Assembly (NCBI GenBank): GCA_964535655.1
Contig: CAZHTP010000002.1
Location: forward strand, 90,054-154,053
Reading direction: 5' to 3'
Length of the DNA stretch: 64,000 nt
DNA from: an uncultured Gammaproteobacteria bacterium
Lineage (GTDB): Bacteria > Patescibacteriota > Microgenomatia > JALYQM01
How positions within the stretch are numbered: position 1 is the first letter of the stretch; each line of letters begins with the position of its first letter. Below, in pieces: positions 5,503-33,548 of the stretch. The notes under the pieces were generated by a model that saw only the letters and a program-made list of their open reading frames with translations, was not told the DNA's origin and did not search any database. Position numbers and translations under genes: made by a program.

Positions 5503-5666
5503 AATAAAAAGGAGATTAACATATTCACTTTCTCCCGTCAATAAAACAAAAAGAGATATTTTTGAAAGTCCTGTGAAAATTAGTGTGAAAATATAAAATA
5601 ATTGCATTTTATAATATTAACGGTATACTTAAGATAATTATTCACCATTAAGGGAGCTCGTCATTT

Positions 5667-7762: not shown

Positions 7763-9223
7763 ATGGATACCACGAAGCTTACAATTAAAGACGCGCATGA
7801 AGGCCTAGTTTCTAAGAAATTTTCTTCCACTGAATTAACGAAAAATTACCTTGAAAAAATTAAAAAGCATAATGCTTCATATAATGTGTACTTAACTGTA
7901 ACCGAAGAAGTGGCGCTCCAACAAGCTGAGAAAATTGATGTGAAAATTAAGAGCGGAGAACTAATAGCACCTCTCGCTGGAACTCCCGCAGCAGTTAAGG
8001 ATGTTATTGTAACTAAAAACATTCGCACTACTGCTTCCTCGAGAATGCTTGAAGACTTCAAACCGCCGTACGAATCAACAACAACAGGCAGGCTTAATGA
8101 GCAGGGAATGGTCTTGCTTGGTAAAACTAATTGCGATGCGTATGCTTTTGGAGCTTCTACTGAGAATTCCGGGTATGGACCGACTAAAAACCCCTGGGAT
8201 GGTAATAAGGTGCCCGGAGGTTCAAGCGGTGGTTCGGCCGCAGCAGTTGCCGCCGATCTTGCGGTGTATTCAATTGGTACGGACACGGGCGGATCAATCA
8301 GACAGCCCGCATCCTTCTGCGGCTCAGTTGGTCTGAAACTCACCTATGGAAGAGGATCACGTTTTGGTTTGATTGCTATGGCCTCAAGCTTTGATACGCC
8401 TGGGCCAATCACTAAAACAGTCGAAGATGCAGCGCTAGTTGCTGAAGCAATTTCAGGTTACGATGAAAAAGACGGAACAACAATTGAATTACCAGTACCT
8501 AAATTTTCACAGAATATTTCACAATCAATTAAAGGAATGAAAATAGGGGTGCTCAAAGAATCATATGGAGAAGGAGTGGAAGAAGGTGTGAAAAAAGCGT
8601 TTGATCAATCGTTGCAAACCTTTCGCGAATTAGGAGCAGAGCTCATAGACATCTCAATGCCTAAATTAGCATACGGAATCGCGGCCTACTACATTCTTGT
8701 TCCATCAGAAATCTCATCAAATATGGCCCGGTATGACGGGGTGCGCTACGGACACCGATCAAATAATGCAAAATCCCTTCTTGAACTACAAATGCTTTCT
8801 CGTGGAGAAGTTCTTGAAGATGAAGTTAAGCGTCGAATTATGCTCGGCAATTATGCCTTAAGCTCGGGGTACTACGATGCCTATTATTTGAAAGCAGCTA
8901 AAGTGAGAACAGTTATTAAACGTGAGTTTCACCAGGCATTCGAAAGGTTAGATGCGATTATCTGCCCAACCAGCCCGACAGTTGCGTTTGATATCGGCTC
9001 AAAATCCGACGATCCATTGGCCATGTACTTGGCAGATATCTTTACTTGTCCTGTAAATATCGCGGGAATCCCCGGGTTATCGGTACCTTGTGGTTTTTCA
9101 GAAGGGTTACCGGTAGGATTGCAAATTATGGGTAAAGCGTTTGATGAAGAAACAATTCTTCGTATTGGTCATAATTACGAACAGGCAACAGAGTGGCATA
9201 CTAAATTCCCGGAGGTCAAATAA
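7763..9223 (+). CDS. gatA: Glutamyl-tRNA(Gln)/aspartyl-tRNA(Asn) amidotransferase subunit A
   Basis: Amidase signature (GGSSGGSAAAVAADL, GTDTGGSIRQPA). 486 aa. Confidence 0.9.
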   Translation: MDTTKLTIKDAHEGLVSKKFSSTELTKNYLEKIKKHNASYNVYLTVTEEVALQQAEKIDVKIKSGELIAPLAGTPAAVKDVIVTKNIRTTASSRMLEDFKPPYESTTTGRLNEQGMVLLGKTNCDAYAFGASTENSGYGPTKNPWDGNKVPGGSSGGSAAAVAADLAVYSIGTDTGGSIRQPASFCGSVGLKLTYGRGSRFGLIAMASSFDTPGPITKTVEDAALVAEAISGYDEKDGTTIELPVPKFSQNISQSIKGMKIGVLKESYGEGVEEGVKKAFDQSLQTFRELGAELIDISMPKLAYGIAAYYILVPSEISSNMARYDGVRYGHRSNNAKSLLELQMLSRGEVLEDEVKRRIMLGNYALSSGYYDAYYLKAAKVRTVIKREFHQAFERLDAIICPTSPTVAFDIGSKSDDPLAMYLADIFTCPVNIAGIPGLSVPCGFSEGLPVGLQIMGKAFDEETILRIGHNYEQATEWHTKFPEVK

Positions 9224-17803: not shown

Positions 17804-19645
17804 ATGGAACAGAAAAATATCAGAAATATCGCTATTATTGCTCACGTTGACCATGGTAAAACTACCTTGGTTGATGGGCTACTTAAGCAGTCTCACGTCT
17901 TTAGGGAGAACCAGGAAGAAATGTCTCAGACCACAATTTTAGACTCAAATACTCTTGAGCGCGAACGTGGTATTACCATTTTGGCAAAAAACACCGCCAT
18001 TCACTGGGGCGACTATAAGATCAATATTTTGGATACCCCAGGCCATGCTGACTTCTCAGGTGAGGTCGAACGCGTTCTTAATATGGCTGATGGCTGCCTT
18101 CTTGTGGTTGATGCTGCAGAGGGCGTTATGTCCCAGACAAGATTTGTTCTTAAGTTAGCTTTCAATGCTCACCTGACACCAATTGTTGTTATCAATAAAA
18201 TCGATAAAAAAGATGCCCGACCAACCGAGGTTCTCGAAGAAGTTAATGATTTATTCCTCGAGCTTGCTCAAGACGAATCTCAACTAGATTTCTCGGTAGT
18301 CTATGCAATCGGACGCGAAGGAATCGCTTCCGAGCATATCGAACAGAATACCGACGGCACCTGGGCTATAACTAAAGCAAAAGATTTATCGTATCTGTTC
18401 GAAGTAATTATCAATAAAATCCCGGCTCCAACAGGGGATGAAATGGGCGCATTTCAAATGCAGGTTACTTCCCTCGATAAAGACGACTACAAAGGAAAAT
18501 ATGTAATCGGTCGCGTCATGCGTGGAAAAGTGAAGAAAAACGATCAGTTAGGTATTTTACGTCCCGATGGTTCAAGTCAGAATAAAAAAGTTGAATATAT
18601 CTTTACCTACGAGGGCCTTCATAAAGTTGAGATCGAAGAAGCGGCAACCGGGGATATCATCGCTATCACCGGTTTTACCGAGGCAAATATTGGCGACACA
18701 TTAACGGATATAAATGTCAAAGAATCACTACCACCACTTCCCATTGAAGAGCCAACATTAAAGATGACTTTTTCTGTTAATACGTCCCCCTATGCCGGCA
18801 AAGAAGGAAAGTATTCAACGTCTCGCCAATTGCGTGATCGCCTCTATAAAGAGCTTGAAGCAAACGTTGGCTTGCGGGTTGAAGATGCTGAATCAACCGA
18901 TTCCTTCATCGTCTCAGGGCGTGGAGAGTTACATTTATCTATCCTTATTGAAACCATGCGCCGTGAAGGATATGAGTTCTCCGTATCTCGCCCTGAAGTT
19001 ATTTTTAAACAGGAAAATGGCCAGACAACCGAGCCATGGGAATTGTTAACAATTGAGGTTCCTGACGATTACACCGGTGTAGTAACAACCGAAATGGGCA
19101 TTCGAAAAGCTGAAATGGTAAACATGTTAAGCGATGGTAAAGGTGAAACTCGTTTTGATTATAAAATCGCTACACGTCACTTAATTGGATTTAGAAACCA
19201 ATTTATCTCAAATACATCTGGACGCGGCATTATGAACTCATTGTTCCTTGGCTATGAGCCTAAAGGCGACGACGTACCATTTAATCGCAACGGCGCGCTA
19301 ATTACTTCTGAATCAGGGGTTACTACAACATACGGACTTGCCAATGCTCAAGAGCGTGGTAACACTTTTGTTCCTCCGCAAACAAATGTATATGAAGGAA
19401 TGGTTATAGGCGTTAACGCTAAAAAAGAAGATATGCCCGTTAATGTATGCAAAGAAAAGAAATTAACTAACATGCGCGCTTCATCCGCTGATATTGCCGT
19501 AAAGTTAACGCCACCAATTATCATGTCGCTTGAACAATGCCTAGATTTCTTAGGGCCAGATGAACTGCTTGAAGTTACTCCGAAATCGTTGCGTCTGCGA
19601 AAACGCTATCTTACAGAGGTAGATCGACGTCGAGCATCCCGCTAA
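17804..19645 (+). CDS. typA: Translational GTPase TypA/BipA
   Basis: G1 motif AHVDHGKTTL, DTPGHADF, and EF-G-like domain order. 613 aa. Confidence 0.9.
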   Translation: MEQKNIRNIAIIAHVDHGKTTLVDGLLKQSHVFRENQEEMSQTTILDSNTLERERGITILAKNTAIHWGDYKINILDTPGHADFSGEVERVLNMADGCLLVVDAAEGVMSQTRFVLKLAFNAHLTPIVVINKIDKKDARPTEVLEEVNDLFLELAQDESQLDFSVVYAIGREGIASEHIEQNTDGTWAITKAKDLSYLFEVIINKIPAPTGDEMGAFQMQVTSLDKDDYKGKYVIGRVMRGKVKKNDQLGILRPDGSSQNKKVEYIFTYEGLHKVEIEEAATGDIIAITGFTEANIGDTLTDINVKESLPPLPIEEPTLKMTFSVNTSPYAGKEGKYSTSRQLRDRLYKELEANVGLRVEDAESTDSFIVSGRGELHLSILIETMRREGYEFSVSRPEVIFKQENGQTTEPWELLTIEVPDDYTGVVTTEMGIRKAEMVNMLSDGKGETRFDYKIATRHLIGFRNQFISNTSGRGIMNSLFLGYEPKGDDVPFNRNGALITSESGVTTTYGLANAQERGNTFVPPQTNVYEGMVIGVNAKKEDMPVNVCKEKKLTNMRASSADIAVKLTPPIIMSLEQCLDFLGPDELLEVTPKSLRLRKRYLTEVDRRRASR

Positions 19646-19956
19646 ATATGATATTCTACTAGTATGGATCAGGATATTATTATTGAAACAGACTTTCGCC
19701 CTGAAGCCCTCAAAAGGTTGCAATTAAAAACGGGCAAGATTTAAAAGACAAGCAGTGGCAGGAGTATGGAACTCTGTTTTAATGCAGCCATCGCATGGCT
19801 CATGACAATTTTGATTCAAAGGCTTTTTGCTTACAACCTGATACGTTCTGCCATTACATGCGTGATGTGGTTAACGAAGCCTCTTCAGAAATTTTATACT
19901 TTCAACCAAATACCAAAGAAAAAGTACTTGTCACCAGATAATAAAATGCTGGTTCA

Positions 19957-21528
19957 TCATGTCCCTGGTGCGCATCCACCCTTACCTGGGCCGAAACTTC
20001 CCGGATTATTATTCTGAACGAGTACTGGAATCTGTAATACACCAGTATCTGTTCCACCGCCTTTATCTACTGAACTTGTAACCATGGCCAGACAGTGCCA
20101 GCCATTCGTATATTGCGTAGTGTCCCAGGTAACACTTCCGCCAAAGGGTCCTGTTCCTTGTTTAAGTACCTTGCCAAAATTATCTGCTGCAAAAAGTGCA
20201 TCTACATTGACGCTATGCGTACCAGTGGCGATACCTCCGGAGCCAGGCTTCATGTTAGTGTTAAAGGTGTAACTTCCTGAAACTGGACCATATGGAATCT
20301 GGCTAAGGAATTGCGCATTTTCATAATTTGTACCAGTAAACCATCCACGAGCTTCAAGGAATGGAGGCGTTCGATACGTTTTTCCATGCCCATGAAACCA
20401 AGCCTGCCATCCAGTTGATGCATTAAGTCGTTGGCCATTCGAAAAATCACTAAAGAAACGAATACGGATTTCCTCATAGCCACTTAAGCTACTGGTTGGC
20501 ACATCGATAGGAACCCACCAGGTACAGGCGGCTTTCAAATCTGTCCCGTCTGAAGTACATTGAAGCGGTGGATTAAAGGATTTCTGAACTAGCGAAGTTC
20601 CACTTGGTCCTTTACCAATATCCAATTTAGAAATTTTTGAATTATTCCCTTTATGAATCATTAGACGCAAATCAAGATGCAATGTTGAACCGTTAAAGTC
20701 CTGATCCTGAGGAAAACAAGTTGCCGTATGTGTATGTCCACCAATTCCTTTTACTGATGTTTGTGTGGGAGTTTTGATTGAAGCAGTATCCATCCACCAT
20801 GCTTGAGTCTCAAGGAAAATACGTTTTTCAGGATAACGTGAGCAGTCGGTAGTATTCCCTCCACCAGAATCAGGGGGTGTAGGAACTGGGGTGCTCGTTG
20901 GCGTCGGAGTATTAGTTGAGTCAGGATTTGGCACAAAAATCACCACGTACATTGAATAGGCATTTCCTGGAATATCGCCAGCTTTTTCCATTTGATACGT
21001 CCCAGCACTTACTTGACGCTTATAAATATCATAAACTCCAATAAGCCCTTGGTCATTTTTGCGCAACAAGTACTGATTTAAATTAGAAAGATCATCGTTA
21101 GTTTGACGAGTATATTGAGTGGTAACCCATCCCGGAGCAAGCGATTGAAAAATATGTCGTGTTGCAATATACAGTGTTCCTGGTTGAGTGAGTGTTACGC
21201 TCCAACGTAAATTAGCATCATCTTTTATTTCAGTATTAGGAGTTTCAATTACGGTTCCTCCCGCCATTGCTGGATCAATACGAAAATATGTATAGCGCGG
21301 ATCACCAGAATACATCGTAGTATTGGTTTGTAAACATTTCTTGTTAAAGGTGAAACTGCCGTAACTCGTTATATTCGAAACATCACCGGGACATGCAGCT
21401 GCTTGAGTGGAATCAGACTTCCTTAAAGATTTAAATCCTGAAGATATAAATACAGCTACACCTATCATAAAGAGTGCAGGAATAATAAGGGACACAGAGT
21501 TAAATATTTTCATTCGACGATTCTTCAT
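19957..21528 (-). CDS. Secreted/membrane-anchored protein with a conserved N-terminal domain, Pro/Thr linker and large Gly/Thr-rich C-terminal domain. Paralog of 43666..44610
   Basis: N-terminal TM/signal segment, PTPTSTPVPTPP linker. The N-terminal ~200 aa align with the 43666..44610 product (e.g. QGLIGVYDIYKRQVSAGTYQM vs QGLIGLYDIYMKNIPAGTVQL). Confidence 0.6.
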   Translation of the reverse strand: MKNRRMKIFNSVSLIIPALFMIGVAVFISSGFKSLRKSDSTQAAACPGDVSNITSYGSFTFNKKCLQTNTTMYSGDPRYTYFRIDPAMAGGTVIETPNTEIKDDANLRWSVTLTQPGTLYIATRHIFQSLAPGWVTTQYTRQTNDDLSNLNQYLLRKNDQGLIGVYDIYKRQVSAGTYQMEKAGDIPGNAYSMYVVIFVPNPDSTNTPTPTSTPVPTPPDSGGGNTTDCSRYPEKRIFLETQAWWMDTASIKTPTQTSVKGIGGHTHTATCFPQDQDFNGSTLHLDLRLMIHKGNNSKISKLDIGKGPSGTSLVQKSFNPPLQCTSDGTDLKAACTWWVPIDVPTSSLSGYEEIRIRFFSDFSNGQRLNASTGWQAWFHGHGKTYRTPPFLEARGWFTGTNYENAQFLSQIPYGPVSGSYTFNTNMKPGSGGIATGTHSVNVDALFAADNFGKVLKQGTGPFGGSVTWDTTQYTNGWHCLAMVTSSVDKGGGTDTGVLQIPVLVQNNNPGSFGPGKGGCAPGT

Positions 21529-21605
21529 AATATATCTATAGTAAATGAGATAACTCACGTTATACAACAGTTAAAATTAATAGCAAAAAGTGATATAAAT
21601 AAAAT

Positions 21606-23180
21606 ATGTCAGAAAATGGAGAATATACAAAAATATCTGATCATATGATCGGAGTGAATGAAGTTGTTGAAAAAGATGCTGTTGATGATTGGAAAAGACA
21701 GCTCCACGGATTATCGTCTACTGCTCTAGTTGAAGAGTTTAATAGTGCCTTTATGTGGACCGATGCCGGGAGAACATTAGATTCCGGAGGTGTTGATCAC
21801 CTGGACTTAACAGAAAACGAACAGCACCGGGTGTTCCTTGCTCTTGAACTTATCAAAGCCGAGATGACAAAACGCGTTGATGCCGAACTTTCCGCAAAAA
21901 ATAAAACAAGGGCGCAGTTACTTAATGATTATTGGGGGCAAGGTAAAATAGATAATGAAGAACGCAGTGCAATACTTAATTATGGTCAAGCTGAGAATGC
22001 TCCGCGCGAACTATTAAACTACATTATCGTTTCTGAATTAGGGCGTGAAGAAGAACAAGCGAACCAAAAGAGTAAGGAAACCACTTATCATGCAAAGTTA
22101 ATAAAAAGCGTAACCAGAATGGCTGCCTCGGTTGTAGGTGGATTAAGCGTAATCGCTGCACTTGGAATGGCAACTACTCCACCAGTTGATCCCAGGATGG
22201 CAAGACAATCTGTAGATACACCAGAAAAATCACCATCGCCAGCTCCAACCGTGATACCAACGGAAGTGTTTACGATTACTTCAACACCCACTCGAACACC
22301 CGAACCAACAAGCGCTCCAAGCCCGACAGGAACCCCAGAACCTACACCTCATGCAATCACAGCAGAACAATATCTTATACAAACTGCCACCGCACTTCCC
22401 CCATCCGAAAGGAATACTTTAGTGCACAGTGAAGTATTTAGCAAAGAACAGATTCACGAGATCAAAAGAAGCAGTTACCAAGTGTTTATCGATAACGGTG
22501 GATGTTCAACAACAGTAATTGACAGGGACCATGAAAATATCACCTTATTGCTTGCTCGACACTGCTTCGTTTTCAGCATGAATAAAGATTTTTACATTCG
22601 AGAAAATCCTACAGTACTCCTTATTAATCCTGAAACTGGCGAGCAGACAAATATTCAAGTTGATGTTGATGGAATAATCTATAAACCAGGAAGATACGCA
22701 AGAGATGTTGCCTTAATCGTAGGAAAACTCGCTAATCCCAAATTTATTGCGCCTCCGTTCCCTAAGTCCAGAATTCTCTCAGACTATGCATTTAGTCCAG
22801 GTCAAGATACGCTTGTGACTGGATACCCTGCAATTTTAAATCAAGCAGGTCCAAGTCAAATTCGTTTTCTAACGGGAGAGGGCAAGTTTACTAAAAATCA
22901 GGACGTTGCTGAGTTGGGGGCCCCGGCTAAAGAAATGCAGTCTTTTATGTTTGAGCAAACACAAGAAATTTATACACCGATGGGTCCAGGTGCTAGTGGC
23001 GGAAGTGATTATGTAGTAATAGATGGAAAAACATATATCGTAGGGGTCAATTCTTATACTAATGTCGCGCTTATCAAGTATGATGGAACAATTCTTGATC
23101 CCATTCATGCCGGAATAAGTAATATTCCAGCCGAGTATTTAAACCAAGCCGAAGCAAAAATGAAGGCATTAAAGAAGTAA
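21606..23180 (+). CDS. Membrane-anchored protein with Pro/Thr linker and a C-terminal trypsin-like (S1-type) serine protease-like domain
   Basis: Internal TM helix at about residues 165-185 and a TPTRTPEPTSAPSPTGTPEPTP linker. Candidate catalytic triad contexts are LLARHCF (His), RDVALI (Asp) and GPGASGGSD (Ser, GDSGG-like). Confidence 0.45.
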   Translation: MSENGEYTKISDHMIGVNEVVEKDAVDDWKRQLHGLSSTALVEEFNSAFMWTDAGRTLDSGGVDHLDLTENEQHRVFLALELIKAEMTKRVDAELSAKNKTRAQLLNDYWGQGKIDNEERSAILNYGQAENAPRELLNYIIVSELGREEEQANQKSKETTYHAKLIKSVTRMAASVVGGLSVIAALGMATTPPVDPRMARQSVDTPEKSPSPAPTVIPTEVFTITSTPTRTPEPTSAPSPTGTPEPTPHAITAEQYLIQTATALPPSERNTLVHSEVFSKEQIHEIKRSSYQVFIDNGGCSTTVIDRDHENITLLLARHCFVFSMNKDFYIRENPTVLLINPETGEQTNIQVDVDGIIYKPGRYARDVALIVGKLANPKFIAPPFPKSRILSDYAFSPGQDTLVTGYPAILNQAGPSQIRFLTGEGKFTKNQDVAELGAPAKEMQSFMFEQTQEIYTPMGPGASGGSDYVVIDGKTYIVGVNSYTNVALIKYDGTILDPIHAGISNIPAEYLNQAEAKMKALKK

Positions 23181-23183
23181 ATT

Positions 23184-23744
23184 TTAATAATTTCCAACAT
23201 TATCAGGAATTCTTAATCCTAGATCATACTCTGTTTCATGGCATGCCACAGGAATTCCGTGGCAATAATTGCGTGAGGTGTCAATACCTTGTACAGCGCT
23301 TCTAAAACCTATGCAAGTGCAAGTGTGGCCTTTAGTACTCATAAATCCACTATCTCCAGACGGCTTTGGAAAAATAAATGCTATGAAGAGCAAGAGAAAA
23401 ATTATTTTATAAAGCCTTTTGCTAAGTTTACCTAATATGATAAACATGAGCGTATTAAATACTATGAATTCGAGCAAAACGTAATTAAGTAATTCTCCAC
23501 CGATAAAAATAGTTAGGGTATAAACAACTATACCCGGTATAAGCGTAGCGAGCCCCTTCTCCAGATATGAATTTTTGATTTTAGGTGTTACAGCACTGAT
23601 GCCGTAAAAAATTACTGATAAAATAAAGATACTTGGCACAATAGCCGGCTCAAGAAGGTTCATAAAAAAAGCATAAAATAGCTTTGAATTATTTTCAAGT
23701 ACAATTGTCAGGTGAAAAACTGAAGTGTATAAAAGTAGGCTCAA
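23184..23744 (-). CDS. Polytopic membrane protein, hypothetical
   Basis: 186 aa with 4-5 hydrophobic helices. Confidence 0.45.
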   Translation of the reverse strand: MSLLLYTSVFHLTIVLENNSKLFYAFFMNLLEPAIVPSIFILSVIFYGISAVTPKIKNSYLEKGLATLIPGIVVYTLTIFIGGELLNYVLLEFIVFNTLMFIILGKLSKRLYKIIFLLLFIAFIFPKPSGDSGFMSTKGHTCTCIGFRSAVQGIDTSRNYCHGIPVACHETEYDLGLRIPDNVGNY

Positions 23745-23838
23745 GTTACCACAGTTTCAACACCTCAGCAATGATATCTTTTTGGTTGAATCTATTGTGA
23801 ATGCAGCTAATCGAGGCTGGGTATCTCTGCCTGCGTAG

Positions 23839-24048
23839 TTAAAAATCAAACAACTCTTTCAACTTCACATCCAACGCATTAGCCAATTTCCAGATCGTGC
23901 GAAGCATCGGTTCTCTATGACCATTTTCAATCTCGTTGACTGAGGTAATATCTATTTTTGCTTTCAGCGATAGGTCAAGTTGTGTCATCTTCTTTTGCTC
24001 TCGTAGTTTTCGCATGCGAGCACCAAAGCGTTCAGTGATTGTAGCCAT
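23839..24048 (-). CDS. XRE-family helix-turn-helix transcriptional regulator
   Basis: 69 aa with a classic HTH_3 pattern (MRKLREQKKMTQLDLSLKAKIDITSVNEIENG). Confidence 0.7.
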   Translation of the reverse strand: MATITERFGARMRKLREQKKMTQLDLSLKAKIDITSVNEIENGHREPMLRTIWKLANALDVKLKELFDF

Positions 24049-24144
24049 AGCACGTTAATACCTCTTGCTGTGACTATGGCACCCATGCCATACTACGTCT
24101 GTGGCAAGGACGCCAAATAGTGAGCTAGGTATGAGCGTGGTTTT

Positions 24145-24696
24145 ATGAAAAGTAAGAAGAAACTATTTCTCGTTTTCGTGTGTGCAACATTGTTCAGCTA
24201 TGCTATTCGTGTGGGTGCAGATATCATCCGACCGTCGTTTAATCTTGCGTCGGACTATTGCTTGTTTGTTGACGTGGTACGCACTGAGTATAACGAAGAG
24301 ATTGGCGAAGAATACGATGTGGAAGAATGTACTGTCTTTAAGAATGATGTCGAACGTCAGAAGTATTATTATAACCGAGCCCTTGCGAGTCAAAATGGAG
24401 GTGGATTGTTTCTTTTGACGATGTTGGGTAGCGGTCTTTTTGGACTTTTGGTTGTACGTCTTTTGTTTCCCACCCAAGAGCGAACAGCGATTATCGGAAG
24501 TCCCTTTTTTGCAGTGGTTGTGATCGGCTCTATAAGTACCGTGGGAGCCTTTATGTTGTCCTATATTCTACCTGCACCCTCAAGCCATCTGCCTTTTATC
24601 GAATACCAGCATCAACGATGGAGTGATGAAATGGAGGTTCAACTTGAACAAAGAGTAGTAACTATTAACGAAGATGGAGTTATTACACGTCAATGA
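24145..24696 (+). CDS. Hypothetical membrane protein
   Basis: Signal/TM at the N-terminus and two further TM helices. 183 aa. Confidence 0.45.
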   Translation: MKSKKKLFLVFVCATLFSYAIRVGADIIRPSFNLASDYCLFVDVVRTEYNEEIGEEYDVEECTVFKNDVERQKYYYNRALASQNGGGLFLLTMLGSGLFGLLVVRLLFPTQERTAIIGSPFFAVVVIGSISTVGAFMLSYILPAPSSHLPFIEYQHQRWSDEMEVQLEQRVVTINEDGVITRQ

Positions 24697-24715
24697 AAAG
24701 GCATAATACAAACTA

Positions 24716-24952
24716 TTGAAAGGAACACTCATGACCAACTATTTGAACATGCGAACCCATCCATTTACTGCCTATACCATTCTGCTAGTGATAGGCTTAG
24801 TTATTGGAGGACTGATTGGCAACATTCTGATCTTAATAGGAACGTTTGGGCTAATAGGTGCCGTGTGGCGAAAGATGCTTCCAAAAAGAAAGCCAGATAT
24901 AATACCGATCCAAAAGACTACTAATAGTCCTAACCCGTCAGATGAAAAGTAG
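24716..24952 (+). CDS. Small hypothetical membrane protein
   Basis: 78 aa, two hydrophobic helices. Confidence 0.3.
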   Translation: MKGTLMTNYLNMRTHPFTAYTILLVIGLVIGGLIGNILILIGTFGLIGAVWRKMLPKRKPDIIPIQKTTNSPNPSDEK

Positions 24953-25166
24953 TCACAAAAAGATACTCCTAATCGTAACCATCCTTACAGTATTGTGCTT
25001 GGTGTACTCCATTCGGGCTGTATACGTAAGTAATATGTGTAAGGAAGAGATATACAAAATGCCTACTGAACAAAGCGAGTATGATGATTTTATAGTTGGT
25101 GCAGACTTTATGCTCACAACATGCTTGAAAGAGCAGTATGTCGTACCGCTTGAGATGTTCAAGTAG
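24942..25166 (+). CDS. Small hypothetical protein with N-terminal TM
   Basis: 74 aa ORF overlapping the previous gene by 11 nt. Confidence 0.25.
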   Translation: MKSSHKKILLIVTILTVLCLVYSIRAVYVSNMCKEEIYKMPTEQSEYDDFIVGADFMLTTCLKEQYVVPLEMFK

Positions 25167-25723
25167 TGGTAACGGAGAGATTATTGGTACAAAATATTGT
25201 GTAACTTTGTCGTCTAGCTGCATGAATGTAGTAGTATATGGGGTGAGCGAGTCGTAAAAATGAATACATTATATATCCAATATAAATAACCTATAGTATT
25301 TTTATTAAAGATGTGCTATACTGCCTTTTGCTCATAGAGTCACTAGGCTCACTTTCTAGCGTAACTGACTTTGTTGAGCGTAAGCTTTTAGAATGAGCTT
25401 AAGTACCTTAACAATAATTTAGTGGGGAAGATTGGGGTTTTGAGCTTGCATAGCCAAATAGACGCTTAAACATCGTCTTAAAGGCAAAGCATATAAGTTC
25501 AAAGCTCCAACAATTCCCTACTATCTAATGTAAGCAATAGAGAGAATAACTTCCACACTAGTTGGGACATTTGAGGTAAAAACTGCCTGTTTCTATCTGA
25601 AATGTCCCGAATAGTGAAAGGAGTGCCATGTAAGATGGTTTTGGAAAGGTAGCATAAATGCTACTCAAGTGACGCAAGTTGCTTGAACGTAATTCTTTAA
25701 CCACCTACTAAGGAGAACTAACC

Positions 25724-26155
25724 ATGCGTAAGTACGCCATCCTGTTCGCTCTGCTGGCCGCCCTGCTCGGGTTCATCAACACCGCCAACGCCGCCCCGGC
25801 TGAGTGCCGCCGCTGGACCTACACGCAGGACGCCGTGGACAACAAGCCCATCGCCACCGGCATCGAGCTGTTCAACCAGCAGTCGATCAGCATGACCTCG
25901 CCTGAGACGGGAGCCGTCCTTCGGTTCCGCAGCCTCAAGCCCTTCAGCGTGAATGGCGGCGAGGCCACCTGGACAGAGATCGCCCCCGGCGTCTTCACCT
26001 GGCAGTACGTCTACTACTTCCCCAAGGGGCACACCTACCGCATGAAGATCACGAACGTCGACGCCCGCGTCATCCCAACCATCCTGCCGGACGGCCCTGG
26101 CCGCGGCATCACCTGGACCAAGTGGTCGGCCCAATGCGGGGACTATCAGCAGTAG
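25724..26155 (+). CDS. Secreted small protein (143 aa, signal peptide, 2 Cys) encoded by a strongly GC-rich (~65% GC, high GC3) gene
   Basis: RBS AAGGAG 8 nt upstream of the ATG. Signal peptide MRKYAILFALLAALLGFINTANA. Codon usage (ctg, gcc, ggc, cgc) is sharply different from the rest of the window. Confidence 0.7.
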   Translation: MRKYAILFALLAALLGFINTANAAPAECRRWTYTQDAVDNKPIATGIELFNQQSISMTSPETGAVLRFRSLKPFSVNGGEATWTEIAPGVFTWQYVYYFPKGHTYRMKITNVDARVIPTILPDGPGRGITWTKWSAQCGDYQQ

Positions 26156-26756
26156 CAACTGCTAAGTCTCCACACTAGCTGACCCTACCTCTCTACTGCT
26201 TACCGCAGACAACGTTTTAAGTTGTGGTCGCCAATTGGCACCATGATTTTAAGATGACGTTTGCGATAAGATAGTAGGGAGGTAGTTATACAGTCAACGA
26301 ATCTGTATCTGATGAAGGCAAAATGAAGCCGAAACTACCAACTCAACTAACGTTAGTTCACGAAAAAAAACAACGGCGAAAAAAGTTAACACACAAACAA
26401 AGCAACCAAACACCACAACCACCCACCAACCCTCTGTTATTTATTCTCAACTAGCTATGTGTTCATGCTATTAATAAAACACAATCGTTTGATCGAGTTT
26501 TCCCCAACATTAACATTCAGACCATACAAAAAAGGCTCCTTTTGTGGAGCCATCTTTTGCGTCTTGGTTGTAAGATCTGTAGTTATAATACAGCCTATTG
26601 TTGCTGTATGTCAAACATGGATGGGCGTGATTTGCATTACATGATGTCTCATAGTTATCATCACAGTATTATTATCATGGTTGATAGGAGACGTGGAATG
26701 TTTTGGTTTAGCGGAAGCACTCTGGAGGAGATCACTGCTGTACACGAATTGGTTGT

Positions 26757-28367
26757 ATGGGTCGATCCCTCAAAGATCGTGCGAGTCTATACATCGCACA
26801 CAAGTACAGTGGATTAGTGGAGTATGAGATCTTATGGTTACTACTCCGTACTCGTTTAGAGCGTGAGCCTGAGCTCTTTGAAGTGGCACTCACCTACATG
26901 ACACTACTCCAAGAGTTTAAAGTTGAGCAAGGCTATCCGGATATTTTTACCAGTGCTCCTTTAATTTATGCGTTCATGACAGGTAATGACACAAGGCAGT
27001 ACAGCAAGTCTGGTAACGAGTTTGTTGCTAGTTTTACACCAGTAGTTAAACTGCTGATAGAGAAACAGGTCTTCCAACGATCTAGTTTGTACTACACTTT
27101 CAACAAGGCAGATAAACCTAATCAAGCACGATCTTTCCGGTTAACACCGAAGTTCTACCAATGGTTTAAGAATGTCTTAAGAAGGGAGATGGAACAGGGT
27201 AAGCTATTGAGCCACATGTTTAGTAAAGTGGCCTCAAAACGCACTACACAAGGCGACGGATGGGGTCACAACATCTCCAGGGTGCATCCACACCTGCAAA
27301 CGATGTATCACAAGTTACAAGCGGCTACGTTTGTGATTGACGTAGAGAAAGTGAACGATCTACTCGACATTACAGAACTTATCCGAGACGATAGTGGAGT
27401 TTTACATTTCTCACGCATGGTCAGTATTCGCCATGGATTATCCACGATTGCACTCACAAATACACCACAGCACCACGACAAGATTCATCTCCAACGATCG
27501 GGCAGACGGCACACGAAAGGTGGCTTACAAGCACTACCAAAAGAAGTCAGACGTGCAATCTTAAAACCCAATCAAGCAGGTCATGTATTGGTTGACTATG
27601 ATCTGGACTGTTGCCAGTTATTGCTTGCAGCGAAAGAACTTCACGCACAAAAGCTTATAGCCAAGATCACTGCTATAGTTGAGCGAGGCAGAGGTATTTG
27701 GAAGGCGATGAATATTCCAGTCTCAAAGACACACTTAAAAAAGGCAGTGTATGCACTGGTGTTTATGTGTCCCAAAGGACGAATCGTTGAATCAGTTAAA
27801 AACGAGATGGGAGATGCTGCGTTTACAACAGAACATCTCGAACAGCTGATCAGCTTCTTGGAAGATTTATACCCGCTGCGAGAGAAATGGAAAGCAAACA
27901 ACCGACAGGATTCGATTATCCGACATGAAGGCGAGAAAAACGAGCTTGGCTTAAAGTTTCATCTTGAAGAGGTTGGTAAACATGCGTTTAGTGGTGATCA
28001 ATATGCTGAATCCTACTTGCCCACCTATCGCAAGAGCCCGCAGAGCCAATACTTTGCGTGGAAGATGCAGAGCCGAGAGCAGTTCATCATTACCAGTCTT
28101 ATATCAACTCATGTCGATTATTTAATAGTCTGTGATTGCCATGATGGATTCCTACTCTCCATTCCAAAAGAGGAGGTGCACACAGCTACACAAGCTTACA
28201 GAACATTTCTCAAAGACAACTATGGCATGTATCTGAAAGGTGAAGTTTGGGAGGATGGGCAAGTTATTCCTGTCGATGAGTATGTAGACAACGATGAACA
28301 ATCGTTTGTTTTGCCAGTACCGACTTTCCAGAGTGTAGTACCTGCTTTTACCGGGGGTGGGGTATAA
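26757..28367 (+). CDS. Hypothetical 536-aa protein on the integrative element, candidate replication/primase-like protein
   Basis: Long ORF of intermediate GC. VLVDYDLD resembles the hhhDhD motif I of archaeo-eukaryotic primase-type primases. No other recognisable signature. Confidence 0.4.
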   Translation: MGRSLKDRASLYIAHKYSGLVEYEILWLLLRTRLEREPELFEVALTYMTLLQEFKVEQGYPDIFTSAPLIYAFMTGNDTRQYSKSGNEFVASFTPVVKLLIEKQVFQRSSLYYTFNKADKPNQARSFRLTPKFYQWFKNVLRREMEQGKLLSHMFSKVASKRTTQGDGWGHNISRVHPHLQTMYHKLQAATFVIDVEKVNDLLDITELIRDDSGVLHFSRMVSIRHGLSTIALTNTPQHHDKIHLQRSGRRHTKGGLQALPKEVRRAILKPNQAGHVLVDYDLDCCQLLLAAKELHAQKLIAKITAIVERGRGIWKAMNIPVSKTHLKKAVYALVFMCPKGRIVESVKNEMGDAAFTTEHLEQLISFLEDLYPLREKWKANNRQDSIIRHEGEKNELGLKFHLEEVGKHAFSGDQYAESYLPTYRKSPQSQYFAWKMQSREQFIITSLISTHVDYLIVCDCHDGFLLSIPKEEVHTATQAYRTFLKDNYGMYLKGEVWEDGQVIPVDEYVDNDEQSFVLPVPTFQSVVPAFTGGGV

Positions 28368-28525
28368 CTTTTTTAGGAGCGGTACCTGTTTTGTGCGAGA
28401 GCGGGTTTGTTGTATATATAATGTCGGCCCCTTTAACCCTTTTTTCTACAGAGGGGGTGTAGGTGCAAGGTTGCCACTGGCCAAACGTCTACTCAATGCT
28501 ATACTATAGTTGAAAGTAGTGACTC

Positions 28526-28720
28526 TTGGGAGGTATGAACCTCTTATTAACCAAGAGCACAAGTAAACAACCTACTATCGCCCAACTTCGTGAACTTCTT
28601 GGGCAAGATTATGCATCACTCCCCGACAGTGATGTTGTAGCTTTGTGGGAACATGTACTCTCCCTCACAGAGGCTTTATACCAAACAGGATTACATCTAT
28701 ATTATAAGAAAGGACAGTGA
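28526..28720 (+). CDS. Small hypothetical protein (64 aa)
   Basis: ORF immediately upstream of, and overlapping, the degenerate resolvase gene. Confidence 0.25.
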   Translation: MGGMNLLLTKSTSKQPTIAQLRELLGQDYASLPDSDVVALWEHVLSLTEALYQTGLHLYYKKGQ

Positions 28721-29157
28721 ATATGAACGCTGTTATTTACACTCGTTGTGCCGTTGAAGATAGTTTAGACATGCAGGAAAAAGCGTGTCGTCAATATGCT
28801 GAGTTGCAAGGCTACCAAGTAGTCAAAACTTATTCTGATAATGGTGTGTCGGGGCTTACATCTAATCGGGTAGGGTTGCAAAACTTATTACAGGAAATCG
28901 ATAAGGGATCAACAGTTATCGCTTACGATGATACTCGGTTGGCAAGATCTGTTGAGGAGATGCACCAGTTGTATAAGATTTTTGTACAGAAAGATGTTGA
29001 TGTTCATTTGGTTAAAGCAGGTTGTTTTCCGAAGAGTCCAACCGACAAATTAGCGTTTTACCTTACCGATTTAGTAAGAAGCTTTGATAACAATATTCGC
29101 TCGGAGAGAATAAAACGTGGTCTGCGAGCTAAGAAAAACAAAGGGCTTACAAACTAG
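28717..29157 (+). CDS. Serine-recombinase catalytic-domain-only paralog with the nucleophilic Ser replaced (YTRCAVED instead of YxRVSTDEQ), probably inactive
   Basis: 146 aa aligning along a resolvase catalytic domain (DDTRLARSVEE ~ DRLGRS; C-terminal E-helix IRSERIKRGLRAKKNKG). There is no DNA-binding domain, and Ser is replaced by Ala at the active-site position. Confidence 0.6.
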   Translation: MNMNAVIYTRCAVEDSLDMQEKACRQYAELQGYQVVKTYSDNGVSGLTSNRVGLQNLLQEIDKGSTVIAYDDTRLARSVEEMHQLYKIFVQKDVDVHLVKAGCFPKSPTDKLAFYLTDLVRSFDNNIRSERIKRGLRAKKNKGLTN

Positions 29158-29181
29158 CTCAAGCCGGGATATAAAATAGGC

Positions 29182-30711
29182 ATGAATGCGATCATCTATA
29201 CCAGAGTTTCAACAGATGAACAAGTTAAGGGATTTAGCTTGGGTACTCAGCTAAAGGACTGTCGGGAGTTCTGTGAGTCAAAGGGCTGGACTGTAGTTGA
29301 CGTCTTTCAAGAAGAGGGTGAAAGCGGCACTACTGACAATAGACCTGAACTGAAACGAATGCTTGCGTATCTACAGAAGCATCGAGGTTTAATCCAGTAT
29401 GTTGTAGTCTGGAAGATTGATCGCATTTCACGCCTAATGAAAGACCATTTCAAGATAACGGAGCTTATCGAGGAATGTGGTAGTGTGGTTGTGAGTAAAA
29501 CCGAGTCTTTCGATAAGACACTGTCAGGAGAGCTACAGCAGCGGATACTACAGGTGTTTAGTGAGTATGACAATAAAGTACGAGCTGAGCGATCAGTCAC
29601 AGGTACAAGAGGCGGATTAGAGAATGGTATCTGGATGAGAGGCATTCCAACAGGTTATAAAGGTAGAGATGCTCACAAAGTGCCTTTAGTTGATCCTATC
29701 ATGGGACCAATACTTGCGGATATTCTGGTTACTTTTTCTCGGGGTAATCATGAAGTAAAGCAGATAACGGAGCTTGCGAAACAAAGAGGATTGCTGACTC
29801 CTAAAGACGAAGAGGTTTCCGATAAGACCATGCATAAAATACTTCGTAACCCTTTTTACTATGGTTGGCTGTCGATGCAAGGTAAAAAGATACAGTATGG
29901 CGGGTATGGCAAACACCAGCCTTTAATAGACAAAGACACGTTCTTTAAGATTCAGTCGGCTATGCTCAGTCATAACAACAGATCAAACACACGTCATCGT
30001 AATAGAGAGGAGTTCCCTCTTAAGAAGTTGTTGAGGTGTGGTGTTTGTGGAGGAGATTTAACAGCTGGTTCATCCCCTAACAAAAAGAAAGTACTCTACT
30101 GGTATTATCACTGCCAAAAGTCTGAGCATCTACGTATTCCAAAAGATCTCATAGAGAAGCAGTTTGAAACTATGTTGGAGCGTATTCGTCCTACCGAAGG
30201 GATATTGAACCTATTTCGTTTGGCCATTAGAAACTTGGTCAATGAGCGAATGGGTGATGCGATAACTAATGTTCAACGAGTTGATAAGGAGCTGACAGCA
30301 CTCCGTGATGAAAAAAACGGATACGTGAGGATGAGAGCGAGAAACGAGCTTGATGAAGCATTGTTCTTTCAAATGCTGAGAGAGGTTGATGCTAAGATCA
30401 ACAAAAAAGAGATGATTCGTGCTGAGATGCGAGAGGAAGAAGTTGATATTGATAAGCTATTAGCTCTCTATGAAAGCCTTTTCAAAAATGTGGCGATGTG
30501 GTGGAGAGAAGCACCGCTAGAGTATAAGCAACAGATGCAACATCTGGTATACCCAAAAGGCATAACAGTTATGTCGAAGCTTGGAGAAATACAACACCCT
30601 GAATTAGGCTTAGCGTTCGCAATAGTTGATTCTTTGCGAAGTGGTAGTGCCTTGAGTAGCCCCGAGGGGAATCGAACCCCTGATCTCCAGGATGAGAACC
30701 TGGCGTCCTAG
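29182..30711 (+). CDS. Large serine recombinase (integrase)
   Basis: N-terminal resolvase domain (IYTRVSTDEQ), recombinase domain and Cys-rich zinc ribbon (CGVCGGDLTAG...YWYYHCQKS). The last ~18 codons (..PEGNRTPDLQDENLAS*) are encoded by the antisense of tRNA-Glu. Confidence 0.85.
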   Translation: MNAIIYTRVSTDEQVKGFSLGTQLKDCREFCESKGWTVVDVFQEEGESGTTDNRPELKRMLAYLQKHRGLIQYVVVWKIDRISRLMKDHFKITELIEECGSVVVSKTESFDKTLSGELQQRILQVFSEYDNKVRAERSVTGTRGGLENGIWMRGIPTGYKGRDAHKVPLVDPIMGPILADILVTFSRGNHEVKQITELAKQRGLLTPKDEEVSDKTMHKILRNPFYYGWLSMQGKKIQYGGYGKHQPLIDKDTFFKIQSAMLSHNNRSNTRHRNREEFPLKKLLRCGVCGGDLTAGSSPNKKKVLYWYYHCQKSEHLRIPKDLIEKQFETMLERIRPTEGILNLFRLAIRNLVNERMGDAITNVQRVDKELTALRDEKNGYVRMRARNELDEALFFQMLREVDAKINKKEMIRAEMREEEVDIDKLLALYESLFKNVAMWWREAPLEYKQQMQHLVYPKGITVMSKLGEIQHPELGLAFAIVDSLRSGSALSSPEGNRTPDLQDENLAS

Positions 30712-30730
30712 GCCGCTAGACGACGGGGCC
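30657..30730 (-). tRNA. tRNA-Glu (anticodon CTC)
   Basis: Minus-strand cloverleaf GGCCCCG-TC-GTCT-AGCGGCCTAGGAC-G-CCAGG-TTCTCAT-CCTGG-AGATC-AGGGG-TTCGATT-CCCCT-CGGGGCT-A, very close to canonical bacterial tRNA-Glu. Confidence 0.8.
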
Positions 30731-30995: not shown

Positions 30996-33350
30996 TTAAT
31001 TTTCGTTACTTCCAACCAATTGTAATTCTTTCCAGAGTAGCTGACTTGATTCTTTACCTACAGCATTCACAGAGATTTGCTGCGTTAATTCACGCCATCG
31101 AGTGTGCTCTTCAATTGGTTTATTATCCTTACCAGTCATTTCTTCACTATAGTGAATTGTTCGGCGCCCAGTCGACTCGACAATTATATTCTGCTTTTCA
31201 AACGATTTCGTATCATTCTGGTAATGAATTACGGGCTGTGTAATATACACATATTCTTTTACAAGTTCCCACAGCACGTCATTTACGGCTTCATTTGTCT
31301 CAGAAACGGGAAGGCCAAGTGTTTGTGCTTCAAAATAAACAATTGGATAGTGTGCTGAAGGATATCCCTGAGTTAATTGAGTTATAATCTTTGCAATATC
31401 AGTATCGCTTCTTTTATTTTTTGTACTTAATTTCATTAAGTTTGTACAAATTCGTTGAGTTAGCGCAAATTGGCGTGCAGCGGCGGCAGTTACCAATGGA
31501 TGAAACGGCGATTGTGAAGGATCCATTACTGCAGGTTGATCATCTTTTTGCTTAACAGTTTTAGTGGGTGTTGTTGCTGATGCCTGGAATATCTCACTAA
31601 TTGGCACAGAAGCAGATTCTTCGTTTAGTGCTTTTTGTAAAAGCATATGCGAAAACGTGGTATCAATGGGTGATAAAAATCCAAATGGATTCATTAATAT
31701 TGAATCAGCCGCCAGCGCAAACATTGTTGTTGCCATTGTCGATTCTTCTGGCAATATAACGTGCATTTCTTCACAGAATTCACGGATAAGTGTTGCCATT
31801 CTCCAAACGACCGTACTATCAGTATCCTGGATGAATGGAATAACAAAGAGCGACTTTTTCCTTCCTAATTTTCGTAGGTGGCTATACAGATAGCGCATAT
31901 CCTCCATTGCTAATTTGGCTTGAGCGGCATAAAAAACAAGTACTTTCCCATGAAGTGATTCTTCAAGTCGTTCTATTGCTTCCTGGGTATGTTCCCATGC
32001 TACCGGTGGCTTTCGTTGAGGGGCCATTGCTGCGACAGGTGCTTGTCGGGGAGCCTGTTGTGAACGCCGATCTTCTCGTTGCGGCTGACGCGGTGTTTCA
32101 GATCGAACATTCTCTATTCGTTGTTCAGGTTGTGACCGATCTCCAACCGGCTCCGGTTGCTGATTTCGCGGCGGACGAGCTTGCTGATCTTCTTGTCGTG
32201 GCCGTTGTTCCTCCTGTCGAGTAGGTTGCTCTTGCGGAGGCCTCGGTGGCTGAGTATTTTGTCGTGGTTGCTCTTGTCTTTGTTTCTGCTCTTGTTTTGG
32301 TTGGTCAGGTCTTGTCGGCGCAGATTGGACTGGCTGTTGTGGCTCCGGTTGCTGATTTACTGTCTCTTGAACAGGCATCTCTTGTGGTTGCTGTGTTTGT
32401 TGTTTAGGTTGCTGTGGTGGTGCCGGCTGAACAGCAGATACCGGTTTTTGTTGTTTGGGTGTCGGTGGCGCGGCTTGTTGTTGAGGAGCAGGCTGGACCG
32501 GTTGCGGTTTAGGTGCTTGTTGCTTCGGAGCAGGTGGTCTCTGTGGTGGTTGTGCTGGCTGTTGTTGAGGCATTGGTTGTTTGAACACCGAGTCAAGTGA
32601 AGGCAATGAGGGCGGTTGATTTGATGCGGCGGCTGCCATTGGTTGATTAAGCGGTGGTAATCGCTGACCGCCTGCAGGTGCGGGTGCAGACATACTTGGC
32701 GTATTTAATGGTGGCAGCCCAGGTGCGCTATTAGCTCCCTCAGGAGCATCAAATTGCAAACCACTACTCTTAAGTAAGTCGTCCAAACTTGGTAGATCGA
32801 AATTATCGTTGGGGGCATTGACTTGACCTTGCTTACTAAACGGCAACGGTGGAACTTGGCTTTGTACGGCCTGAGGAAGAGGCGCTGGTGCGGGAGAATT
32901 TTGTAGTGTAGGTGGGATCGGTGTTGCCGTCGCCTGTTCGGCCGCGGGAGATACCCCGTTAGTATAACTCTCCCACGCTAAGTCGGTTATACGTTTATAA
33001 ATCAGGTCAAAAGGGGATTTACGCATCTCTCCCTTAAGCCGCTGATAGCTCGTCATTGTTACAGTATTGTTCCCCATGGAGTCAACTACACTTAATGTTA
33101 CATCAGGAACATTTGGGGATGCCCCCGAATCATGAATTATATTAGGCAATTGAAAAAAACCAGTCTCCCTGCAATATTGGAGAGTTCCCATAACTTTATT
33201 ACGATCAATTTGCCGTTCTACAATATCTGTATCAGATTCAAAAATAAGCATTCGTCCGTTGTCGTAAATCTCAACATCGCCAGCACGAGAATTTGGCGGT
33301 AAAAGGCCACCACTCATTTTTACTAGTATTGCTAGATTTGAAACTGGCAT
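30996..33350 (-). CDS. Three-part protein: N-terminal domain, ~250-aa Pro/Gln-rich low-complexity spacer, C-terminal SDH/ClpP-class (S49-like) protease-like domain with the catalytic Ser apparently substituted
   Basis: The C-terminal segment FVIPFIQDTDSTVVW...ESTMATTMFALAADSILMNPFGFLSPID parallels the SDH-family ...HYAMSGGTLIALAADEIVMD...GPVDP, with Ala replacing Ser. The start is placed at an internal Met because the longest ORF overlaps tRNA-Lys(TTT). Confidence 0.45.
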   Translation of the reverse strand: MPVSNLAILVKMSGGLLPPNSRAGDVEIYDNGRMLIFESDTDIVERQIDRNKVMGTLQYCRETGFFQLPNIIHDSGASPNVPDVTLSVVDSMGNNTVTMTSYQRLKGEMRKSPFDLIYKRITDLAWESYTNGVSPAAEQATATPIPPTLQNSPAPAPLPQAVQSQVPPLPFSKQGQVNAPNDNFDLPSLDDLLKSSGLQFDAPEGANSAPGLPPLNTPSMSAPAPAGGQRLPPLNQPMAAAASNQPPSLPSLDSVFKQPMPQQQPAQPPQRPPAPKQQAPKPQPVQPAPQQQAAPPTPKQQKPVSAVQPAPPQQPKQQTQQPQEMPVQETVNQQPEPQQPVQSAPTRPDQPKQEQKQRQEQPRQNTQPPRPPQEQPTRQEEQRPRQEDQQARPPRNQQPEPVGDRSQPEQRIENVRSETPRQPQREDRRSQQAPRQAPVAAMAPQRKPPVAWEHTQEAIERLEESLHGKVLVFYAAQAKLAMEDMRYLYSHLRKLGRKKSLFVIPFIQDTDSTVVWRMATLIREFCEEMHVILPEESTMATTMFALAADSILMNPFGFLSPIDTTFSHMLLQKALNEESASVPISEIFQASATTPTKTVKQKDDQPAVMDPSQSPFHPLVTAAAARQFALTQRICTNLMKLSTKNKRSDTDIAKIITQLTQGYPSAHYPIVYFEAQTLGLPVSETNEAVNDVLWELVKEYVYITQPVIHYQNDTKSFEKQNIIVESTGRRTIHYSEEMTGKDNKPIEEHTRWRELTQQISVNAVGKESSQLLWKELQLVGSNEN
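31900..32640 (-). repeat. Low-complexity coding repeat (Pro/Gln/Glu/Arg-rich, ctg/ttg/ggt-rich DNA) inside 30996..33350
   Basis: Reiterated QQPxPQ / PKQQ peptide units. Generates long spurious antisense ORFs. Confidence 0.7.
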
Positions 33351-33476
33351 ATAAAAAGAGTGTATCCAAGATCGACATCTCTTGTCAATTGACCGCTGCC
33401 AGTGATACAGTATCCTAATCCAAGCGTAGACGGGTGTATATATCTCTGATATAATCATCACCGAGGAAATAGCAAT

Positions 33477-33548
33477 GGGTCGGTAGCTCAATGGTAGAGC
33501 AGCAGCCTTTTAAGCTGTTGGTTCTGGGTTCGAATCCCAGCCGACCCA
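33477..33548 (+). tRNA. tRNA-Lys (anticodon TTT)
   Basis: GGGTCGG-TA-GCTC-AATGGTA-GAGC-A-GCAGC-CTTTTAA-GCTGT-TGGTT-CTGGG-TTCGAAT-CCCAG-CCGACCC-A. Confidence 0.85.

Follow-up and report, generated by a model that had tools for sequence, protein, structure and literature searches.

The 64-kb window analysed here (the whole stretch of 64,000 nucleotides from contig CAZHTP010000002.1, to which all coordinates refer unless another contig is named) carries on its plus strand an open reading frame (ORF), 25724-26155, which encodes a protein of 143 residues and is strikingly richer in GC than the DNA around it. The ORF lies in a variable cargo slot of an integrated element of about 9.1 kb, inserted next to a tRNA-Glu gene, and stands there between a long hairpin and a hammerhead motif.

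A GC-rich gene in AT-rich DNA

With a GC content of 64.6%, compared with a mean of 0.405 over the window, ORF 25724-26155 is the highest-GC stretch of 432 nt in the 64 kb and lies 5.2 standard deviations over the mean of all such stretches. Most of the difference is found in the third codon positions: GC is 0.53, 0.49 and 0.92 in the first, second and third positions (GC1, GC2 and GC3), and the last value is 15 standard deviations over that of 20 host and element genes (mean 0.358, standard deviation 0.037), the neighbouring element genes having a GC3 of 0.37-0.44. A codon model that sets high-GC usage against host usage gives +0.93 bits per codon for this ORF and negative values, -0.66 to -1.23, for all host and backbone genes. 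At the 5′ edge GC climbs no more than about 10 nt from the ATG (25724), and at the 3′ edge the background is regained about 60 nt past the stop codon (52% GC in 26156-26215, 39% in 26216-26315).

A Shine-Dalgarno sequence, AAGGAG (25710-25715, plus strand, read from the sequence), is located 8 nt upstream of the ATG. By inspection, the N-terminus of the encoded protein has the organization of a Sec signal peptide (MRK, a hydrophobic core, and ANA followed by AP; predicted residues 1-23), which leaves a mature domain of 120 residues rich in Trp, Tyr and Thr, with Cys28 and Cys138. An earlier note, made from the letters of the sequence, had described a strongly GC-rich gene of foreign codon usage with a good Shine-Dalgarno sequence and an intact signal peptide, lying in AT-rich DNA on an element at tRNA-Glu, and all of this was borne out (GC3 92% compared with about 36% in the other genes; 64.6% GC compared with 40.5% for the window).

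The plus frame is the real coding frame of this segment, as its third-position GC periodicity fits a gene and the opposite strand would require a GC1 of 0.90. The antisense ORF of 146 residues (25718-26158, minus strand) is open and was chosen on a public contig, so that one may ask whether it is the true gene, or whether the segment is non-coding. However, its GC1, GC2 and GC3 are 0.90, 0.48 and 0.54, a correctly spaced consensus Shine-Dalgarno sequence and a canonical signal peptide occur on the plus strand only, and open antisense frames are routine in high-GC3 genes; we therefore consider that possibility highly improbable. The public gene call in question was made on a Logan contig, L085, at 7877-8317, which corresponds to 25718-26158 of the window on the minus strand. 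The 143-residue protein is on record from just three short contigs, probably because the gene call picked the antisense ORF; the GC3-rich ORFs of the sister element described below are likewise on record from Logan contigs only and are absent from the NCBI record. Gene callers take the antisense ORF of such GC3-rich genes in AT-rich genomes, and the genes are in this way systematically lost from protein databases.

Misassembly is excluded, because both junctions of the GC-rich ORF are reproduced in three independent single-run assemblies that are 100% identical to the window: L001 (SRR8893621) over 24925-26431, L002 (SRR8893624) over 25546-26948, and the 12.8-kb contig L085 (SRR8893623) over 17842-30684. 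The abruptness of the compositional change and the choice of the antisense ORF by gene callers on public records would also suit a chimera or contamination, in which the GC-rich segment is foreign to this genome; given the agreement of the three runs across both junctions, the probability of this is close to nil, and the caveat of chimeric assembly that accompanied the earlier note is thus removed.

The same note had called the gene unlike every other gene in the window, which goes too far, since 49725-50714 on the minus strand is also GC-rich (58% GC, GC1 0.66, GC3 0.61). This second gene is located between a transglutaminase-like gene and uvrC with no hammerhead nearby. Its product clusters with no other protein at 90% identity and combines a lipoprotein-like signal (…VSAGC), a linker rich in Pro, Ala and Thr and a coiled-coil C-terminus. 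A further rise in GC at 31889-32995 (53-56% GC, within the minus-strand ORF 30996-33491) was considered as foreign DNA and rejected: it encodes a low-complexity linker rich in Pro, Gln and Ala, with GC1 up to 0.84 and a normal GC3 of 0.32.

The integrated element and its host

Housekeeping genes (gatA/B, dnaE, typA, uvrABC) identify the window as part of a bacterial chromosome. Its DnaE is 87-90% identical to that of two metagenome-assembled genomes (MAGs) and about 50% identical to that of Magasanikbacteria, Nomurabacteria, Uhrbacteria and other Patescibacteria; judged by sequence, the host is a lineage of the Patescibacteria (candidate phyla radiation, CPR) distinct from the named candidate phyla.

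The element occupies about 21580-30640, the left edge being approximate and the right edge lying about 15 nt from the 3′ end of the tRNA-Glu(CUC) gene (30656-30730, minus strand), which the element abuts. These limits come from synteny with GCA_964403585.1, a relative with about 90% amino acid identity in DnaE and with an empty site: in that genome (L086), tRNA-Glu(CUC) lies about 120 nt beyond the homologue of 19957-21567 and is itself followed by that of 30996-33491. No att-type direct repeat of the tRNA-Glu was found in the search for element boundaries, as is expected with serine recombinases, and synteny was used instead.

Beside this insertion, which is missing from the relative, stands a large serine recombinase gene (29182-30711, plus strand) with the Resolvase, Recombinase and Zn_ribbon_recom domains (PF00239, PF07508 and PF13408) of CcrB/XisF-like enzymes. 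Its ORF overlaps the 3′ part of the tRNA-Glu gene by 56 nt on the opposite strand. Directly upstream, 28717-29157 on the plus strand encodes a small serine recombinase consisting of the resolvase catalytic domain only (PF00239, E = 1.4e-28, with NCBIfam hits).

The variable slot and the sister element

The backbone gene at the downstream edge of the slot (26757-28367, plus strand) encodes a protein of 536 residues with a single homologue among 5.8 billion proteins (P0005, 52% identity). The homologue belongs to a sister element on contig L084, which is probably part of the same genome as the window. Two non-coding blocks are conserved between these elements. The first, 25268-25416 (plus strand), forms the upstream edge of the slot and is 87% identical to L084 3108-3254, although the flanking proteins are only 52% identical; the second, 26309-26447, is 70% identical to L084 5520-5667. 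The two blocks bracket about 0.9 kb with ORF 25724-26155 in the window and about 2.3 kb with four ORFs in L084, and the content between them is unrelated.

GC3 of the four slot ORFs in L084 is 0.71, 0.80, 0.72 and 0.58, compared with 0.31-0.40 in the backbone genes, and the codon model favours high-GC usage in three of the four (+0.23 to +0.57 bits per codon). GC3-rich cargo is thus a property of a dedicated slot in this element family and not a one-off. The cargo ORFs of both elements also have in common a ribosome-binding site of the RGGAGAA type. In exact-pattern scans of IMG/VR and JGI contigs, neither the conserved block nor the hammerhead subtype revealed further members of the family.

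The upstream block contains a promoter-like site at 25365-25394, detected by a consensus scan, and an extended -10-like sequence, TGCTATACT, recognized by eye; the block may represent a promoter with a structured 5′ leader. Hairpins with GNRA loops (GAGC-GUAA-GCUY) are present in the block in both elements (25268-25416 and L084 3108-3254), with no match in Rfam.

The remaining genes of the element include a Cro/CI-type helix-turn-helix regulator (23839-24048, minus strand; Pfam HTH_3, E = 1.5e-15), small membrane proteins, and a protein of 524 residues with a GASGG motif that by eye resembles trypsin-type proteases. No virion proteins were recognized in the element (no PHROG hits). The 536-residue protein is possibly a polymerase-like replication protein. 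Motifs resembling those of a polymerase palm, VDYDLDCCQLLL and CDCHDGFLLSIP, were seen by eye in this protein and in its 540-residue homologue (L084 5978-7600); a firm assignment as a polymerase was rejected, the only match being a weak, non-significant one of motif C to a PDB chain annotated as 'DNA polymerase' (E = 0.16).

Hairpins and hammerhead motifs of the cargo units

Each cargo unit has the same order: a stable hairpin of about 30 bp, one or more ORFs, and a type III hammerhead motif. The imperfect hairpin upstream of the ORF in the window (25549-25624, plus strand; inverted repeat I1) has a folding energy of -40.1 kcal/mol (z = -7.75), and the two hairpins of L084, at about 4409-4491 and about 3347-3412, have -41.9 kcal/mol (z = -7.3) and -36.5 kcal/mol (z = -5.5). 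The 13-mer TAGTGAAAGGAGT at the 3′ base of the window hairpin (25612-25624) recurs at L084 4478-4490, likewise at a hairpin base, and is thus common to two of the hairpins; beyond this 13-mer, the three cargo units showed no homology in their leaders or trailers.

The hammerhead motif of the window (26281-26339, plus strand) is formed by helix III (GGUAGU/ACUACC), helix I (AUACAG/CUGUAU), the core CUGAUGA, helix II (GGC/GCC) and GAAA. The cleavage triplet is GUU, with cleavage predicted between 26287 and 26288, and an extra A (26316) follows CUGAUGA. Both copies in L084 have the full core; they score 21.7 bits (4275-4334) and 23.9 bits (5495-5549, homologous to the window copy) against Rfam RF00008, the window copy was not reported by cmscan at E <= 10, and none of the three reaches the gathering score of 48.5. 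Minimum-free-energy folds nevertheless give a three-way junction in all three copies. Compared by hand, and in three sequences only, helix I reads AUACAG/CUGUAU, UACGAG/CUCGUA and GUAGCG/CGCUAC; helix II reads GGC/GCC twice and GCC/GGC once, and in helix III the outer G-C pair is replaced by U-A. The three copies accordingly have three helices around the core, backed by covariation, with helix III open, as in type III. No other ribozyme class or known RNA was detected in the slot at E <= 10.

Between the ribozyme motif and the next gene the consensus scan marked a terminator-like GC hairpin (26534-26551). A promoter-like site on the minus strand, 26585-26614 (TTGACA, a spacer of 18 nt and TATTAT, 11 of 12 consensus positions), faces this bidirectional terminator-like hairpin from about 35 nt away, which could indicate a short antisense RNA or could be a chance match. 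Directly after the hammerhead, both elements contain a CA-rich and apparently unstructured tract of about 100 nt (26340-26450; L084 5550-5660). A small ORF that starts within helix II (MKPKL…) does not have a conserved length and is probably not a gene. The inverted repeats at 25515-25544 and 26189-26280 were rejected as transposon terminal repeats, because they lack colinearity and have no counterpart in the sister element.

The encoded protein and the question of a donor

The 143-residue protein matches only itself in an index of 5.8 billion proteins, and a HMMER scan of 1.84 billion representatives returned two weak hits, one to a repeat protein of phage tails and one to a SpaA-repeat protein, which were discarded as noise as their alignments ran through many short repeats. 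Altogether, some 15 billion proteins and all DNA collections searched yielded no homologue, and there was no match in JGI metagenomes, IMG/VR, INPHARED phages, PLSDB plasmids, PDB, Pfam or PHROGs. None of 185,579 GTDB species representatives encodes the protein, so that the earlier note's idea of a recent transfer did not founder on equally GC-rich homologues in all relatives. AlphaFold2 models from the single sequence are all-beta at low confidence (mean predicted local distance difference test score of 46 for the full protein and 52 for the mature form, too little for a search by fold), and the product is probably a small secreted all-beta orphan protein.

Because no homologue exists in any collection searched, no donor can be named, actinobacterial or other, and the suggestion of an actinobacterial donor, or of any identifiable high-GC one, has no evidence to lean on. 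The claim of a recent inter-phylum transfer is accordingly borne out in part: the intact gene and its foreign codon usage agree with it, and the missing donor and the fact that the gene is one of several such slot ORFs do not.

A possible second context

The ORF is physically linked to high-GC DNA on one contig only, L003 (SRR8857867, 1.1 kb), which is identical to the window over 25623-26206, that is, the leader and the ORF. The upstream part of this contig (1-520, 58% GC) contains the 3′ 90 nt or so of a 5S rRNA gene, inverted relative to the ORF, and msrA, both from a bacterium of about 60% GC. The nearest named relatives of its MsrA are found in Planctomycetes (about 75% identity), followed by MAGs of Gemmatimonadota and Chloroflexi, and relatives of the bacterium to which this msrA belongs have an intact 23S-5S-msrA locus. 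The two parts share 3 nt of exact microhomology where they meet, and this point falls within the 13-mer TAGTGAAAGGAGT at the 3′ base of the hairpin. A second contig from the same run, L093, carries cargo of the sister element and starts inside the same 13-mer, 3-8 nt from the L003 junction. L002, L003 and L093 all have an end or a junction at a hairpin base. None of the other element proteins looked up turned up in SRR8857867; a lookup of the host ribosomal protein L19 returned a contig from SRR8893621 and a second contig whose run was not listed.

L003 may be an artefact, and we are doubtful that it reflects a real second context of the gene. Were it real, the hairpin-ORF-hammerhead unit, or the leader with the ORF, could be a mobile cassette moving between unrelated genomes, and L003 would represent its insertion into a 5S rRNA gene; the bacterium concerned, of high GC and possibly planctomycete-like, could be either the donor or another recipient. 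The identity of the two copies, the intact locus in relatives of the msrA bacterium, the position of the junction at the hairpin base close to the start of L093, the failure of other looked-up element proteins to appear in that run, and the fit of the codon usage of the ORF to that kind of high-GC genome all agree with such a cassette. On the other hand, its sole basis is one contig of 1.1 kb, with only 3 nt of microhomology and a 5S gene that is truncated and inverted, and strong hairpins are classic sites of polymerase stalling and template switching. A technical cause is suggested by L002, a contig of the project that yielded the MAG, since it too has an end at the hairpin base; L093 with its sister cargo shows that SRR8857867 contains the CPR strain or elements of it; and no recombinase known for such sites was identified. 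We therefore regard a mobile cassette, which in part overlaps with the import of cargo considered below, as unlikely. A more far-reaching version, in which hairpin-ORF-hammerhead units are undescribed mobile cassettes exchanged in identical form between a Patescibacteria element and a planctomycete-like bacterium, with L003 as a real insertion at the hairpin-base motif and GC3-rich codons marking genes that come from, or are shared with, high-GC partners, must be rated somewhat lower still.

Imported cargo or selection on codons

The divergent composition of the slot ORFs encourages us to ask where they come from. We are inclined, with some reserve, to regard ORF 25724-26155 as a recently imported, moron-like cargo gene that is expressed from the promoter block of the slot and exported by Sec. 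According to this scheme, the ORF would be held in the single variable slot of the element, bounded upstream by the promoter-bearing block and downstream by the backbone gene, and transcription of the slot would start in the conserved block. The transcript could then be cut or stabilized by the hairpin and the ribozyme, which would separate the cargo mRNA from the backbone mRNA, and the product would leave the cytoplasm through Sec. The GC3 of 92% would be the codon signature of a high-GC source, and since this signature appears unameliorated, the acquisition would be recent.

This scheme is favoured by the composition and codon usage of the ORF, the junctions reproduced in three assemblies, the empty tRNA-Glu site of the relative, the architecture of the large serine recombinase, the hairpins, the hammerhead folds and the published parallel in prophages. 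In addition, the fraction of Gly, Ala, Arg and Pro (GARP) in the protein is 0.30, which is outside the range of host genes (0.18-0.26) and inside that of high-GC reference genes (0.29-0.38), and the slot of L084 holds different ORFs, also raised in GC3 (0.58-0.80), between the same blocks.

Several observations weigh against it. As no donor or homologue exists in the collections searched, the transfer is deduced from composition. The 5′ GC boundary lies about 10 nt from the ATG and the leader of 100 nt is AT-rich, although a fragment from a high-GC donor should bring GC-rich flanks with it; the enrichment is nearly confined to the ORF. The fraction of residues with AT-rich codons (FYMINK) is 0.27 in the protein, which is host-like, and the cargo of L084 pairs GC-rich codons with amino acids of the AT type (GARP 0.17-0.25, FYMINK 0.27-0.43). 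The window hammerhead, with its extra A beside the core and its score below the Rfam level, may be inactive. The AT-rich leader, the restriction of GC to little more than the ORF and the AT-type sister cargo keep two other readings in play, namely the mobile cassette and selection or recoding at the codon level.

By the latter, slot ORFs would become or stay GC3-rich through something that acts on their mRNA or on the slot DNA, and the GC would not be a donor signature. Possible causes are the stability of ribozyme-processed transcripts with a 5′-OH end, avoidance of A/U-specific RNases, and locally biased repair. No fewer than five ORFs show the trait, spread over three cargo units and two elements, the gain in GC is mainly in third positions and largely within ORFs (intergenic parts of the slot have 35-42% GC), all units use one style of ribosome-binding site, and the AT-type amino acids of the sister cargo fit codon selection at least as well as import. 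Nevertheless, no known mechanism gives this result. Some flanks look like those of imports, as the GC-rich tracts of L084 begin 40-60 nt before the ORFs and 60 nt after the stop codon of ORF 25724-26155 are moderately GC-rich; the spread of GC3 between units (0.58 to 0.92) is what different donors or ages would produce; and the GARP fraction of the 143-residue protein is beyond the host range. Selection on codons is therefore improbable in our opinion, to about the same degree as the mobile cassette. If, as we prefer, the ORF is imported cargo, it would be a clean and very recent case in which a small serine-recombinase element brought a foreign gene into a Patescibacteria genome, in a group whose mobile elements and cargo are poorly described.

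Comparison with known systems

As a whole, the element resembles those that depend on large serine recombinases (Ccr of the staphylococcal cassette chromosome, XisF and the phage enzymes) in the Resolvase, Recombinase and zinc-ribbon architecture of its recombinase, in its small, cargo-bearing form and in site-specific insertion without long direct repeats. It differs in its target, the 3′ flank of a tRNA gene, with att sites that are undefined here, and in the second, catalytic-domain-only resolvase encoded beside the large recombinase.

The term moron, a concept associated with Hendrix and Juhala, covers accessory genes that temperate phages and integrative elements carry as cargo. ORF 25724-26155 shares with them its position as an extra gene between conserved backbone genes, replaced by others in the sister element, and a base composition distinct from that of its neighbours (GC3 0.92 compared with 0.37-0.44). 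It is also moron-like in its flanking promoter-like (25365-25394) and terminator-like (26534-26551) sites, which are here consensus-like only, and in its small secreted or membrane protein product, secretion being predicted in this case. In contrast to morons, it is carried by a Patescibacteria element in which virion genes are not recognizable, the difference in composition is extreme (GC3 0.92 compared with 0.36), and a long hairpin and a hammerhead mark the limits of the unit, not just a promoter and a terminator.

The slot also invites comparison with integron cassettes, as it is array-like and contains heterogeneous promoterless ORFs with imperfect hairpins behind a presumed common upstream promoter. 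Here, however, the hairpin precedes the ORF instead of following it, and the recombinases are of the serine type and apparently serve the integration of the whole element. Interpretation of the hairpin as an integron attC site was rejected: there is no IntI tyrosine recombinase, R/L boxes and a GTTRRRY core are lacking, and the AAC/GTT of the hairpin is central and not terminal.

The closest parallel to the ribozyme motifs is provided by the clustered prophage hammerheads of Perreault et al. 2011 (PMC3088659), which are reported to be located near integrases and often to flank single genes or short blocks of non-constant identity, their function being not known. As in those prophages, the motifs described here are in sense orientation and flank variable genes in integrase-bearing elements. 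L084 adds to the likeness with two hammerheads in tandem around a block of two ORFs. By contrast, all copies here score below the gathering level, and that of the window has a 1-nt insertion beside the core. A link to GC3-rich cargo and a paired hairpin of about 30 bp did not appear in the consulted part of PMC3088659. With its anatomy and its GC3-rich ORFs on two elements, the slot offers a testable system for a question that dates from 2011, the reason why hammerheads are found beside variable genes in integrated elements, and equally for whether hairpin-ORF-hammerhead units are mobile by themselves.

Passenger genes of foreign composition in integrative elements, and hammerheads beside variable genes, are thus known kinds of arrangement. 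The Patescibacteria setting of hammerhead-flanked cargo appears to be new, as far as our literature search shows, and the same appears to hold for the combination of hairpin and hammerhead in one unit, for the consistent GC3-richness of the slot ORFs and for the possible identical copy in another phylum.

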